Numbered from the stretch's first letter, positions 5,985-12,707 are shown. The stretch: DNA of 64,000 nt from Candidatus Hydrogenedentota bacterium (GCA_963668025.2 CAXXTH010000017.1:576001-640000); one strand, 5' to 3'. Notes: generated from the letters alone by a model not told the origin. Translations and numbers: made by a program.

Positions 5985-7913
5985 TTAATCCAGCGCGAGC
6001 ACAAACGTGCTTACACTGTGCCAGGCATTGTGCAGGAAAAGGGCTTCCCGCTGCGCGCCGGCTTTCTTGAAGCCCAGCGCCTCTAGAAATGCCTGGAGCG
6101 CGGGCTCCCGATCTGCGGCTTCGACCAGAATCCGGCGAAGGGATTGCTGTTTGCCCGCCTCGGTGAGGAGAAACCGGAATCCCTTGCGGATGCGTTCCTG
6201 GGCATACAGCGCTTCATCATGCAGGAAGATGCTGGCGCGCATGGCGCCCGTAGCCATATCTGGCGTCATGCGGACCAGGCCAATGGGCGCGCCGCCGCGT
6301 AGCGTGGCGACCATTTCCTGCACGAAAACTTGCGGGTGAAGGGCGTCCATCTCCCGCTCGTATTGCGTGGTCATCAATACGCAGCCCGGATGTAACACAA
6401 AATACGAAGCCTCGCTCCAGTTTTCCCACTTCACCAGCATCTCGGCGTCCGCTTCCGCGATAGGCCGCATCAGCACATTCAATTGGAGCGCGGCGCGCGC
6501 CATCGTGGCGAGGGAAAACAACGACGGCTTGGACGAGGCGTTCATGCCTTGATAAATCGGCGTGAAGTTGACCCCCTGGCCGGAAAGAATATTGAAGGCC
6601 GATACCGCCGAGGCCATCCACATGCGCTGCGCCTCGCACCAAGGCCCATGTGGTTTGCGGAAAGAGCCCGAAAGAGCTTGATGTACGGCGGCCGTCCCGC
6701 CGCCGCATAAATTGCGCGCCCAGCAGTTCCGGCACGCGGAAGTCGTGAGCGAGCCCACATCGTCATATCGCTTTAAGGCTTCTTCATCGACATGCCCGTC
6801 CACGATAGACCCCGCCCGGAATTCCGGCATCCCGAAAAAGCGCCAAGAGGGGTAAATGCCGCCGTCGGCGTCCACCGCGAGTTCATTCGTGCCGGTTGCA
6901 TCCGTACGGGCTTGCGGCTTGCCTTCGTGAATACGGTAAAACAATGCGGCAATGGGATCGAGCCGGAAATGGCGTCCCTTGGCGAGTTGTTCCGCATAAT
7001 ACACCGCCGACTGGCTTAATCCCGGCAGTATGGCGGCAGGTTCGAGCGCGGGATTGGCGATGAACGCGCCATCCAGATCGATCTCGATGACTTTGAAACC
7101 CGCCTTGTCCAGTTCCGGCACCACTCCGCCGTATTCCGGATGATTCGGCCGTACAACGATGCGCCCTGACACGCCTTCCGCGCCAGGCTGCAATACTTTC
7201 ACCAGGCGCGCCAGCGACTCCGTACTGCCTTTCGCCAAGGCATTCAAATGCGGCGCAATGCCGCTTGGATCTTGGAACGCCAGTTTGGCGGAAACGGTAT
7301 GGCCTTTCAGCGCTTCTGGCGGATTCGACAAGGCAATGTCCGCCACATGCACGACCGCACTCAGTTTTTTCCCCGCGAGCGAGGCGAGGCGTAGCGCATG
7401 GGCGCATAAACCGGCAAGCAATTCGGGCTGGCGCACGGCTCCCGGAACGATGAATTCGATAGCGAGTTCTTTCTGCTGTTCGGAGCGCGTGAGCAACAGT
7501 TCGACGGCTTCACGGCCTTGCTCGCGGGCGGAGTTCGACACCACCTGCACATCCTTGCCGAACCAGCCGCGCTTGCGCGGCGCTTCCACGGCATCCTCGC
7601 CCGGCAGCGAAACCGCTAAATGCTTGATTCCACGCTCCACGGAAAAGGTCTTCACGAAATCTTCTGGCGCAGGCTGCACTAGAATGGATTTGGTCGTGCG
7701 GAGCCACTCGAGTTCGCCCACGACTTCCGACAGTTCCTTCGGGTTATGTTGCTCCCCGAGCAGCCGGATGATGCGCGTCACGGACGCATCGGGGTAATAC
7801 TCGAGCACATCCCAGGAGATGCCGTCGCACTCGAAGCAGAAACAGGTTTCCGGGTCAATGGCAAACCGCTTGCCGCCCAGCTCGAACCGATGAATGCGTT
7901 CGCCCGCCATCAA
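5985..7913 (-). CDS. RRE + degenerate radical-SAM + SPASM + C-terminal GNAT fusion (putative peptide maturase scaffold)
   Basis: N-terminus IHRFELGGKRFAIDPET resembles the CteB/QhpD RRE; no CxxxCxxC; SPASM LAVDADGGIYPSW...CRNCWARNLCGGGT...C; C-terminal MRPIAEADAEML...LEALGFKKAG RimJ/L-like GNAT. Confidence 0.85.
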   Translation of the reverse strand: MMAGERIHRFELGGKRFAIDPETCFCFECDGISWDVLEYYPDASVTRIIRLLGEQHNPKELSEVVGELEWLRTTKSILVQPAPEDFVKTFSVERGIKHLAVSLPGEDAVEAPRKRGWFGKDVQVVSNSAREQGREAVELLLTRSEQQKELAIEFIVPGAVRQPELLAGLCAHALRLASLAGKKLSAVVHVADIALSNPPEALKGHTVSAKLAFQDPSGIAPHLNALAKGSTESLARLVKVLQPGAEGVSGRIVVRPNHPEYGGVVPELDKAGFKVIEIDLDGAFIANPALEPAAILPGLSQSAVYYAEQLAKGRHFRLDPIAALFYRIHEGKPQARTDATGTNELAVDADGGIYPSWRFFGMPEFRAGSIVDGHVDEEALKRYDDVGSLTTSACRNCWARNLCGGGTAAVHQALSGSFRKPHGPWCEAQRMWMASAVSAFNILSGQGVNFTPIYQGMNASSKPSLFSLATMARAALQLNVLMRPIAEADAEMLVKWENWSEASYFVLHPGCVLMTTQYEREMDALHPQVFVQEMVATLRGGAPIGLVRMTPDMATGAMRASIFLHDEALYAQERIRKGFRFLLTEAGKQQSLRRILVEAADREPALQAFLEALGFKKAGAQREALFLHNAWHSVSTFVLALD

Positions 7914-8905
7914 TACGCTCCCAGCGTGCCCTTATCGCGGCTCCAATTCTCACAATACCGGAAACAGGCAATCCCAATAGTGGTCCATAACATGCAACTG
8001 ATGAGAAAGAAGAAAAAGGACGGCTGATGGAAAACAGACGAGAAATAGGTCTTGTATTTATAGACCGGCTTCATCTCGGGCTTGCCTTCCGCATCCATGA
8101 CCGGCTTGCCCCGCTTGTCCAGCACAGTCTCCTGTCGGACAAGCATTTTTTGGCCATTCTCATCCAGCAGAAATTCCGGCGAGCCTTCGGCATCCAGCAC
8201 GGGCAGTTGCTGTCCGTCAATGAGGGTATAGCGCAGGCACCGGGATGCATCCGTGACGGGAAGGACGTGCGCCACGGCCCGTGCTGGTGCGGGCCACGCT
8301 TGCGGGCCTGTTTCGGAGAAGGTGGAAAAGGTGGCCAGCCCTATCAAGATAAAGCGCAGAATCATGGCAATCGGGCCGACATCCTTGAAGATCAAGACCA
8401 GGCCGCCCACCATGAAGCCAAAGCCAATCAGATTCAGATAGGTGAGGCCGAGCAGCGCCACCGTAGCAGCGGGCGCGAAATGGAGCGAGCCAGGCGCGAC
8501 AAAATGCGCCACCAAGCCGAGCATGATCGCTGAATTGGCGATGCTATTGACCGAGGAAACAAACGAACGCGCCAGGAAATTAACCACCAGCCCGTACGGG
8601 CTTAGGCAAACCTGTTCGAGTTCGCCCGTGCGCGCCATGCCTTGGATGCCTTGGGTGAACATGCCCACGATGCCAAAGGCGAATACGCCAATGAAGAATC
8701 CCAGTACGAGGCTGACATACCCGCTGAGGTTATCCAGGGCATTTGTACCGCCCAGCGTGATGACCATCTTCACCGCTCCGCCGATCATGGCGAAGCCCAT
8801 CGACAAGCCAATCAACGCCGCGAACCAATACCGCCGCATAATGATGAAGCTGCGGACCAATTCGGCCTTGAGTATGAGGAAAAATCCGCCTATCGCGTAT
8901 AACAC
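7910..8905 (-). CDS. ABC-2 type exporter permease
   Basis: Multiple TM helices, GELEQVCLSP motif, adjacent to the ABC ATPase; 4-bp overlap with the maturase gene. Confidence 0.85.
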   Translation of the reverse strand: MLYAIGGFFLILKAELVRSFIIMRRYWFAALIGLSMGFAMIGGAVKMVITLGGTNALDNLSGYVSLVLGFFIGVFAFGIVGMFTQGIQGMARTGELEQVCLSPYGLVVNFLARSFVSSVNSIANSAIMLGLVAHFVAPGSLHFAPAATVALLGLTYLNLIGFGFMVGGLVLIFKDVGPIAMILRFILIGLATFSTFSETGPQAWPAPARAVAHVLPVTDASRCLRYTLIDGQQLPVLDAEGSPEFLLDENGQKMLVRQETVLDKRGKPVMDAEGKPEMKPVYKYKTYFSSVFHQPSFFFFLISCMLWTTIGIACFRYCENWSRDKGTLGAY

Positions 8906-8980
8906 CTCTAATATGCCCTTTCCACTATTCTGTTTGCGCCGTGGCGGCCTGCTGCAACGCGGATACGCCGAAACCCGCGG

Positions 8981-12456: not shown

Positions 12457-12594
12457 TTAGGCTTCAGCAGCCTTTTTAGTTTGAAGCGCCGTCAACACGG
12501 TGACCGCGAACTGCATCGTCGAGAGGATAAAATCCACATCCACGGTGTCATCGCTGAGATCGGGCCATTTGGTCATTGCTTTAATGTGATTCAC
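12457..12594 (-). CDS. Putative precursor peptide A, 45 aa: MNHIKAMTKWPDLSDDTVDVDFILSTMQFAVTVLTALQTKKAAEA
   Basis: Hand-translated; AAAGGAG RBS 9 nt before GTG; TAA at 12459-12457; MNHIK leader motif. Confidence 0.85.
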   Translation of the reverse strand: MNHIKAMTKWPDLSDDTVDVDFILSTMQFAVTVLTALQTKKAAEA

Positions 12595-12678
12595 GGATTA
12601 CATCTCCTTTTTCCCTGTGTGCGGACAGAGCGCCTAACTCGTTTACAGCCAAGCGTATACCCCAGAGAACCACGCCGA

Positions 12679-12707
12679 AGTATAACACCCTGCCCCTTCT
12701 AAATCAA
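12679..12707 (-). promoter_or_regulatory. Sigma70-type promoter of the peptide operon
   Basis: TTGATT-17 nt-TATACT with extended -10 TG on the minus strand. Confidence 0.7.

Follow-up and report, generated by a model that had tools for sequence, protein, structure and literature searches.

A phylum-wide peptide operon of Hydrogenedentota with SCIFF-type leaders and a radical-SAM-derived GNAT fusion protein: a candidate maturation and export system

The window analysed in this study is a stretch of 64,000 nucleotides from Candidatus Hydrogenedentota bacterium (GCA_963668025.2 CAXXTH010000017.1:576001-640000), and its subject is an operon on the minus strand (12707-5985) in which two small peptide genes, A and B, precede the genes of two GNAT proteins (GNAT1 and GNAT2), a CPBP protease, an ATP-binding cassette (ABC) transporter and a 642-residue fusion protein. 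Judged from its sequence, the fusion is a homologue of the SCIFF maturase CteB which has kept the recognition element (RRE) of enzymes for ribosomally made peptides with post-translational modifications (RiPPs) and four cysteines of the SPASM domain, has lost the cluster motif of radical S-adenosylmethionine (SAM) enzymes together with the SAM motifs, and has gained a GNAT domain. We read the operon as a SCIFF-derived, self-contained system for peptide maturation and export, and for this overall picture we would give a probability of roughly 0.65. In public annotations the operon proteins are named "SPASM domain-containing protein", "GNAT family protein" or "hypothetical".

The fusion protein and its relation to SCIFF maturases

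The fusion gene can be divided into four parts, listed here from the N-terminus of the protein.

7629..7913, minus strand: RRE-type winged helix, residues 1-95, which aligns with the CteB N-terminus and contains CxCxxC (C24, C26, C29)
6909..7628, minus strand: radical-SAM barrel remnant, residues 96-335, fold kept, CxxxCxxC and SAM motifs gone
6579..6908, minus strand: SPASM remnant, residues 336-445, TIGR04085 at 40 bits against a cut-off of 27
5985..6482, minus strand: RimL-like GNAT domain, residues 478-642 plus stop, Pfam GNAT E 0.014-0.016, below cut-off

A profile of 52 members of the fusion family matched CteB (5wgg) at E 8.5e-58 over residues 4-423. The AlphaFold (AF2) model of the fusion has a mean predicted local distance difference test score (pLDDT) of 90 and a predicted template modelling score of 0.77, with three strands and three helices in the RRE at pLDDT >90, and when it was submitted to Foldseek, CteB (5wgg) came first (E 3e-17), followed by SpeG, RimJ and RimL at E about 1e-8. 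The best NCBIfam match is likewise the SCIFF maturase model TIGR03974, at 71.5 bits, which is far under its cut-off of 425. In a search of 1.84 billion representative sequences, 48 proteins were found at E <=1e-30, mostly full-length fusions of about 600-680 residues with some shorter fragments, and beyond these came ordinary radical-SAM/SPASM maturases of 450-490 residues, aligned over residues 6-443 at 21-26% identity.

What was lost and what was kept can be seen in an alignment of 40 fusion-family members with the 8 nearest stand-alone true maturases. The three columns of CxxxCxxC hold cysteine in 0, 1 and 0 of the 40 family members, compared with 8/8 of the stand-alone relatives, and the full motif is found in 0/40. 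Among the 40 family members, the residues of GGE survive in 0, 1 and 6, those of T-N in 1 and 0, and those of S-x-D-G in 1, 2 and 8. The SPASM cysteines C394, C397, C403 and C426 are present in 40/40, and W398 and G405 are kept in 39-40/40, while the remaining three positions of the seven-cysteine signature hold cysteine in just 3, 5 and 5/40. The earlier note had called this protein a dead radical-SAM scaffold, and that stands as far as radical chemistry is concerned, the motifs being absent throughout the 40 members; the scaffold is not wholly dead, though, given the four invariant SPASM cysteines. Since these four are invariant, and since they are presumably the ligands of the second auxiliary cluster in SPASM structures, the scaffold probably still binds one structural [4Fe-4S] cluster.

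In the RRE, residues F10, D30 and L52 are common to fusions and true maturases (39-40/40). The CxCxxC triad (window 7827-7844) is present in 36-37/40 family members, compared with cysteine in 0, 2 and 0/8 true maturases, and it is placed on or beside the third RRE strand. According to excerpts of PMC6231123, it is strand beta3 of the CteB RRE with which the CteA leader pairs. To hypothesize, the triad and the invariant His3 of the leader might form an inter-chain metal site.

The precursors of true maturases allow the leader to be compared as well. A search for the loci of true maturases with an alignment of 13 true radical-SAM relatives found 594 (none when the single nearest of them was the query); 80 clostridial loci were fetched and 400 nucleotides upstream were inspected, which left 75 with enough upstream sequence. 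A cysteine-rich small open reading frame (ORF) precedes the maturase in 65 of these 75, and among the 65 ORF starts MKHI was found 35 times, MKHV 4 times and MKRI 6 times, typically as MKHIKTL followed by N, S or T. The peptides of the Hydrogenedentota operon carry this SCIFF leader N-terminus and the cognate RRE is retained, which supports descent from a SCIFF precursor and maturase pair. The earlier proposal was partly borne out, as regards descent from a ranthipeptide-type pathway and loss of its radical chemistry, by the CteB match, by the loss of the motifs and by the MKHI starts of real SCIFF precursors.

Precursor peptides and inheritance of the operon

For synteny, 37 loci from 13 families were fetched. 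With tblastn, GNAT2, CPBP, ATPase, permease and fusion were found in identical order in 36/37, GNAT1 was detected in 33 of those 36, and the ABC-2 permease was syntenic in 37/37. Upstream of the operon, 34/37 loci have between 1 and 6 small ORFs that begin with MKH[ILV]. With the wider pattern M[KNRVP]H[ILV], 99 small ORFs lie upstream on the operon strand, 1 lies downstream on the same strand, and 6 were found on the entire opposite strand. After removal of 5 spurious-looking ORFs (leaving 94) and addition of the two from the window, the peptide set holds 96 sequences, whose common N-terminus can be written M-K-H-[ILV]-x-x-[ILVM]-[ST]. His3, present in 96/96, was part of the selection pattern; position 7 (I, V, L or M in 93/96) and position 8 (S or T in 95/96) were not. 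The bias of strand and position (99 versus 1 versus 6), together with the conservation of these two unselected positions, argues that the small ORFs are not a product of chance.

Two classes can be told apart. Class B, the peptide proximal to GNAT1, adjoins the operon in 31/37 loci and is found elsewhere in the genome in three more. Its alignment (A4, n=29) has four invariant residues, M1, H3, A12 and K33, and six nearly invariant ones, K2, D13, A14, N20, A25 and W26. Inserted stretches, up to 18 residues long, are seen exclusively between residue 11 and A12, and since length is tolerated exactly there, the junction of leader and core is expected at this point. The class is amphipathic, without a hydrophobic stretch of 20-22 residues, and its end consists of the invariant Lys, K-N-E and about three further residues. 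Peptide B, recovered in its own genome at E 4.4e-21, has an MKHIRKIS leader, the conserved core and an end of KKNE plus two residues. The distal class is hypervariable in sequence and occurs in 1-5 copies per locus; its leader, MKH-x-x-x-[ST]-x-x-P-x-x-A, is followed by a hydrophobic or amphipathic helix of 20-22 residues, then by a Lys at one aligned column in 56/65 peptides, followed by E (25) or N (12), with a polar tail of median 6 residues after the Lys. Peptide A aligns with this class (MNHIK leader, hydrophobic helix, Lys-Lys and a short tail). As far as the alignments can tell, a C-proximal Lys with a short tail is thus the second feature of the peptide family besides the leader.

The peptides had been described as free of cysteine, and this is true of the two in the window and of 81/96 in the family, while nine peptides have two or more. 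A cysteine-bearing sub-class is seen in seven loci (L041, L044, L045, L048, L049, L054 and L055), with two conserved cysteines ten residues apart, within a conserved segment that precedes the hydrophobic helix. A search of the PDB with the class-B profile returned no CteA fragment and chance matches only (E 0.2 or worse), and a scan of the 29 class-B peptides against NCBIfam at E up to 10 gave neither the SCIFF precursor family (TIGR03973) nor any other precursor family. TIGR03973 had no match in the genome of the window either, although the control genomes likewise gave none.

The fusion is present in 60/61 related genomes and in 124/135 species genomes of the phylum Hydrogenedentota (83/86 among those of high quality). 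The operon, with two MKHL peptides, was also found in a genome from another class of the phylum, where the fusion is only 28% identical. In the three loci without adjoining peptides, tblastn of all peptides against the loci themselves gave noise alone; in these three genomes another contig carries GNAT1 (E 1e-62 to 1e-74) together with a class-B peptide (E 1e-19 to 1e-23). Among the 11 genomes that lack the fusion, 5 were examined: the class-B peptide was found in 0/5, and a GNAT2 orthologue was absent in 4/5, the fifth giving a weak match with an internal stop. Taken together, the synteny, the genomes with a split operon, the genome of the other class and the fusion-less genomes argue that the operon is an ancient unit, vertically inherited and lost as a whole. 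It is ancestral to Hydrogenedentota, its parts are kept or lost together, and it is a vertically kept, phylum-wide core trait rather than a sporadic natural-product cluster. The absence of syntenic small ORFs beside homologous fusions had been named beforehand as what would speak against the proposal; small ORFs are syntenic in the relatives, where the GNAT, CPBP and ABC neighbours and the short MKH ORFs are conserved with the fusion.

Some loci depart from the common pattern. The source names obtained for homologues are all Hydrogenedentes or Hydrogenedens, save for one contig labelled Candidatus Bathyarchaeia; this contig of 304,263 nucleotides encodes the fusion and GNAT2 (P0097, P0401) at 52-66% identity to those of the window, and it could reflect mis-binning or transfer. 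Four loci (L023, L024, L025 and L030) have an extra GNAT2-like gene between GNAT1 and GNAT2, seen as a second tblastn match at 35-42% identity, and their distal peptides are unusually long (64-73 residues).

Operon layout, enzymes and neighbouring genes

In the order of transcription, the minus strand carries a promoter-like site, peptide A, peptide B, a hairpin, GNAT1, GNAT2, CPBP, the ABC ATPase, the permease and the fusion.

12679..12707, minus strand: sigma-70-like promoter candidate, TTGATT, 17-nucleotide spacer, TATACT, with TG ahead of the -10 element; 9/12 matches
12457..12594, minus strand: precursor peptide A, 45 residues, GTG start, GGAG 9 nucleotides upstream, MNHIK leader
12216..12332, minus strand: precursor peptide B, 38 residues, best start GTG 12332 with GGAGG 8 nucleotides upstream, MKHIRKIS leader
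12193-12155, with T-rich tail 12154-12147, minus strand: GC-rich hairpin between peptide B and GNAT1, candidate attenuator or terminator, then TTATTTCT
11496..12056, minus strand: GNAT1, 186 residues, Pfam GNAT match below cut-off
10824..11456, minus strand: GNAT2, 210 residues, PF13302 at 61.1 bits against a cut-off of 25.4
10057..10827, minus strand: CPBP (Rce1-like) intramembrane glutamic protease, PF02517 at 37.7 bits against a cut-off of 22.4
8981..10060, minus strand: ABC transporter ATPase, DrrA-like, PF00005 E 1.4e-30
7910..8905, minus strand: ABC-2-type permease, PF12698 E 0.0037, below cut-off
5985..7913, minus strand: CteB-like/GNAT fusion protein, 642 residues
5934..5976, minus strand: two consecutive GC-rich hairpins, probable operon end, read from the sequence directly 3' of the fusion stop codon

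The unit described in the earlier note, a promoter-like site, two peptides, a stem-loop and six genes, was found complete and all on the minus strand. Its 4-nucleotide overlaps at three junctions are present, with reservations: two start codons needed small corrections, and the third overlap may be of 1 nucleotide. GNAT2 and CPBP overlap in GTGA (10827-10824), provided that CPBP starts at that GTG; its open frame reaches 10956, and the start at GTG 10827 is suggested by the 4-nucleotide overlap with GNAT2 that is also present in many other loci. CPBP and the ATPase overlap in ATGA (10060-10057). At the junction of permease and fusion, TTGATG (7913-7908) gives a 4-nucleotide overlap from TTG or a 1-nucleotide overlap (TGATG) from ATG, the latter being the form in most other loci. 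For peptide B, an automatic ORF listing starts further upstream, at TTG 12338.

The promoter candidate carries no weight by itself, since the scanned region held 5 sigma-70-like sites when 4.4 were expected from shuffling. The region between peptide B and GNAT1 as a whole has a folding z of -1.98, and in many of 31 loci examined (an exact count was not made) similar GC-rich hairpins with T-runs stand 3' of the final peptide gene. By sequence, this pattern fits attenuation, with abundant precursor transcripts and scarcer enzyme transcripts. The first of the two hairpins at 5934..5976 was flagged as terminator-like on the plus strand by the scan. In the region 5700-12900 no known RNA element was found at E up to 0.1. 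Anti-phage defence models returned generic ABC-ATPase similarity alone. Among sequencing runs, none of RNA was listed for the locus, a blank that speaks neither for nor against expression, and three runs of one study contain it as contigs.

Of all the proteins encoded in the operon, GNAT2 is the best conserved (mean column identity 64%, 39 invariant columns, alignment A3), and it is the sole GNAT domain over its Pfam threshold. Its profile matched diamine/spermidine acetyltransferases of the PDB at E 2.6e-15, with a resemblance to SpeG-type and aminoglycoside/RimJ-type enzymes, and it keeps an N-x-x-S stretch aligned with the second helix of the template that contacts coenzyme A (CoA). GNAT1 has a mean column identity of 50%; its profile (A2) matched SpeG at E 5.4e-9 and the C-terminus of the fusion at E 3.4e-13, and on the latter match we consider GNAT1 and the fused GNAT to be paralogues. 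The profile of the fused domain matched RimL 1s7k at E 1.7e-7. GNAT1 and the fused GNAT may be non-catalytic.

CPBP proteases have the catalytic motifs EExxxR, FxxxH and HxxxN/D, and these are present in 30/30, 30/30 and 29/30 orthologues, respectively, so that by its motifs the protease looks intact. In the ATPase, Walker A and Walker B are both found in 37/37, and its match to TIGR01188 (E 7.4e-70) is below cut-off.

Directly upstream of the operon is a gene like that of the glutamate synthase small subunit (12801-14288, minus strand). Genes like those of the small and large subunits (gltD and gltB) are neighbours in 14 and 12/38 loci, with no other conserved neighbour and none downstream, and this is probably lineage synteny without functional meaning. 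Further upstream, an ORF of 85 residues (14329-14586, minus strand) resembles, we presume, a RelE/ParE-type toxin of a toxin-antitoxin pair. Downstream, the gene of a protein of 321 residues is found (4807-5772, minus strand), with a double zinc ribbon at the N-terminus (PF12773, E 1.5e-4, below cut-off) and a C-terminal half that is hydrophobic; in other loci it is not a conserved downstream neighbour. An open frame at 458-4804 (plus strand) is listed as 1448 residues, its true start being probably well downstream of 458; by eye, a membrane-spanning middle and a repeat-rich C-terminal part suggest an O-antigen-ligase-like/TPR protein.

Proposed function, rival readings and known systems

In the mechanism that we propose, the MKH leader would bind to the RRE in the form of a beta-strand, as CteA does in its complex with CteB, and the inactive barrel with its one structural Fe-S cluster would be a platform presenting the helical core to the GNAT modules. 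GNAT2 would then acylate either the conserved Lys before the short polar tail or the N-terminus freed by leader removal at the conserved Ala, and GNAT1 and the fused GNAT may be its partners, either without catalysis or as holders of the substrate. Trimming of the leader or of the tail would be the task of the CPBP protease, and export of the product that of the ABC-2 pump. GNAT acylation, leader removal by CPBP and export are here deduced from family membership. Acylation at the Lys specifically is possible, though we would call it doubtful. The boldest version, that of a new ribosomal peptide class as old as the phylum, in which an exapted radical-SAM enzyme presents SCIFF-leader peptides to a three-GNAT module, the Lys is acylated and perhaps lipidated, the tail is removed in CAAX fashion (compare prenyl-CAAX processing) and the ABC transporter exports a housekeeping signal or envelope product, seems to us unlikely as a whole. 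Since the operon is found in nearly all members of the phylum, a physiological role, in signalling or at the envelope, would be likelier than strain-level warfare.

Several observations weigh against this maturation and export scheme. The usual GNAT loop for the pyrophosphate of acyl-CoA is Q/R-x-x-G-x-G/A; where the templates have G-K-G or G-Q-G, GNAT2 has R-N-x-x, GNAT1 x-x-P-L-A and the fused domain A-S-E-S. As the loop is non-canonical in all three domains, the acyl donor is uncertain, and the domains could be poor enzymes, enzymes that do not use CoA, or pseudoenzymes; such loops lower confidence in the use of acetyl-CoA while being compatible with activity. GNAT1 and the fused GNAT are also below their Pfam cut-offs, and in 38 loci no conserved gene for the supply of an acyl donor was found near the operon, only gltB/gltD being conserved (12-14/38). 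What the conserved Lys does is guesswork, as it could also stand beside a membrane helix or be the mark of a protease site, and the assignment of the four SPASM cysteines to a cluster is likewise our presumption. In addition, the predicted complex of the fusion with peptide B is rated as weak support. It scored 0.54 (runs of 0.54, 0.54 and 0.70) against 0.00 for the best control, with at least 48% of contacts in agreement between runs and a partner pLDDT of at least 43. In calibration of the tool, 58/80 solved complexes and 2/110 mismatched pairs reached the mark, and among these passes only 7 of the solved complexes, plus both mismatches, were at 0.60 or under. The pass may also reflect memory or likeness, since the similar complex CteB-CteA has already been solved.

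The loops and the two domains under the Pfam thresholds, together with a radical-SAM core that is certainly inactive, would equally fit an operon without any chemistry, in which the pseudo-radical-SAM protein and three pseudo-GNATs form a docking or chaperone complex that hands unmodified MKH peptides to CPBP and ABC-2. Given that GNAT2 is the best conserved of all the proteins, its invariant columns including the N-x-x-S stretch, that it is well over the Pfam cut-off, and that three GNAT folds seem a costly thing to maintain if docking is their only use, we find this rather improbable. It is highly improbable that the small ORFs are subunits or regulators of an ABC-2/CPBP membrane complex, with an unrelated role for the fusion. 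The hydrophobic stretch of 20-22 residues that the distal peptides have between charged residues would suit such a subunit, but class B has no such stretch, all classes share the SCIFF-type leader with the cognate RRE in the same operon, and copy number and sequence vary widely, which is unusual for transporter subunits.

CPBP (Abi) proteins and ABC-2 pumps are also known as bacteriocin immunity factors, which is a further point against the maturation scheme. The locus could then be a bacteriocin locus with self-protection, in which the MKH peptides are membrane-active helical toxins, CPBP and ABC-2 give immunity, and the GNATs detoxify intracellular peptide by acetylation. Such a reading would account for the hypervariable distal class with its 1-5 copies and its hydrophobic or amphipathic helices, for a hairpin 3' of the precursor genes, as in many bacteriocin operons, and for an ATPase that resembles lantibiotic-protection ATPases (TIGR03740, E 4.6e-39, below cut-off). 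Bacteriocin loci vary between strains, however, and this operon is near-universal, single-copy and syntenic across the phylum, with class B strongly conserved, so that we regard toxin production as improbable. A like argument is made, in excerpts of PMC8326336, against an antimicrobial role of SCIFF peptides in Clostridia.

If maturation and export are the function, nature provides here a clear case of a peptide maturase of the radical-SAM type that has become a docking scaffold without radical chemistry and has been joined to another catalytic fold, and the operon shows how RiPP pathways can change their chemistry yet keep leader recognition. As a candidate new peptide class it offers natural variants of the precursor by the dozen and a portable leader that is short, at about 11-14 residues, which could be of use to engineers of peptides, provided that the GNATs turn out to acylate. 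Being a core operon in a poorly known, mostly uncultured phylum, it likely makes a product central to the biology of that phylum. The role of SCIFF peptides in Clostridia is itself unsettled, and a sister system with the same leader and distribution and a changed chemistry gives a comparative handle on it.

In the literature searched, with subscription journals and supplements outside the scope, neither the operon nor a fusion of a pseudo-radical-SAM protein with a GNAT was found described, nor were peptides of Hydrogenedentota. The nearest known system is SCIFF (ranthipeptide) maturation, by ScfA/CteA and ScfB/CteB (5wgg), which shares the homology over residues 4-423 including the RRE, a precursor N-terminus of the form MKH[IV]-x-x-[L/I]-[S/T/N], and near-universal presence within one large bacterial lineage (for SCIFF according to excerpts of PMC8326336, which also list a quorum-sensing role in a review table). 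The fusion differs in having neither CxxxCxxC nor the SAM motifs and four of the seven SPASM cysteines, the precursors lack a TIGR03973 match and the SCIFF core, which has six cysteines in about 45 residues, and the operon has in addition its three GNAT domains, the CPBP protease and the ABC-2 transporter. Membership of the SCIFF/ranthipeptide class is ruled out by the radical-SAM motif, the SAM motifs, the six-cysteine core and the score of 71.5 against 425 bits; from the shared sequences, the recognition step nonetheless appears to work like that of the SCIFF family.

For acylation by GNATs there are precedents, namely of Lys side chains in selidamides and of N-termini after leader removal in lipolanthines, goadvionins and lipoavitides, and the selidamide GNAT attaches fatty acids to a Lys or Orn side chain of a precursor with an NHLP or Nif11 leader (excerpts of PMC13647313). 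As in these systems, a GNAT is encoded with leader-bearing precursors and a conserved Lys is available as acceptor. The known systems have NHLP or Nif11 leaders and other co-enzymes, and the same excerpts mention no RRE-bearing pseudo-radical-SAM partner for them (PMC13647313). The Hydrogenedentota GNAT loops are non-canonical and acyl transfer is predicted only. Selidamide-type membership was rejected, as the leaders are of SCIFF type and neither NHLP nor Nif11.

The skfABCEFGH operon of Bacillus subtilis follows the same logic of a precursor, an RRE-bearing radical-SAM enzyme, the putative protease SkfC and SkfE/SkfF for export and resistance (excerpts of PMC8172795 and PMC6231123). Differences lie in SkfB, an active sactisynthase that has a Twitch domain, in the lack of GNATs, and in the product, a sporadic cannibalism toxin, compared with a phylum-wide trait here. 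SkfC is presumably a member of the CPBP/CAAX family as well. In staphylococci, MroQ is a CPBP protease in the maturation of the AgrD peptide pheromone, and this pair resembles ours in combining such a protease with a small precursor, part of which is amphipathic and whose tail is charged; the NCBIfam MroQ model, however, matches our CPBP protein far under its cut-off (E 0.018, 14.5 bits against 270), and there is no AgrB-like enzyme in the Hydrogenedentota operon. In general layout, with leader-bearing precursors and an RRE protein beside genes for tailoring, protease and export, the operon agrees with RiPP systems, and its sequences are pointing to a RiPP-type logic with a new enzyme architecture and a predicted modified, exported peptide product.

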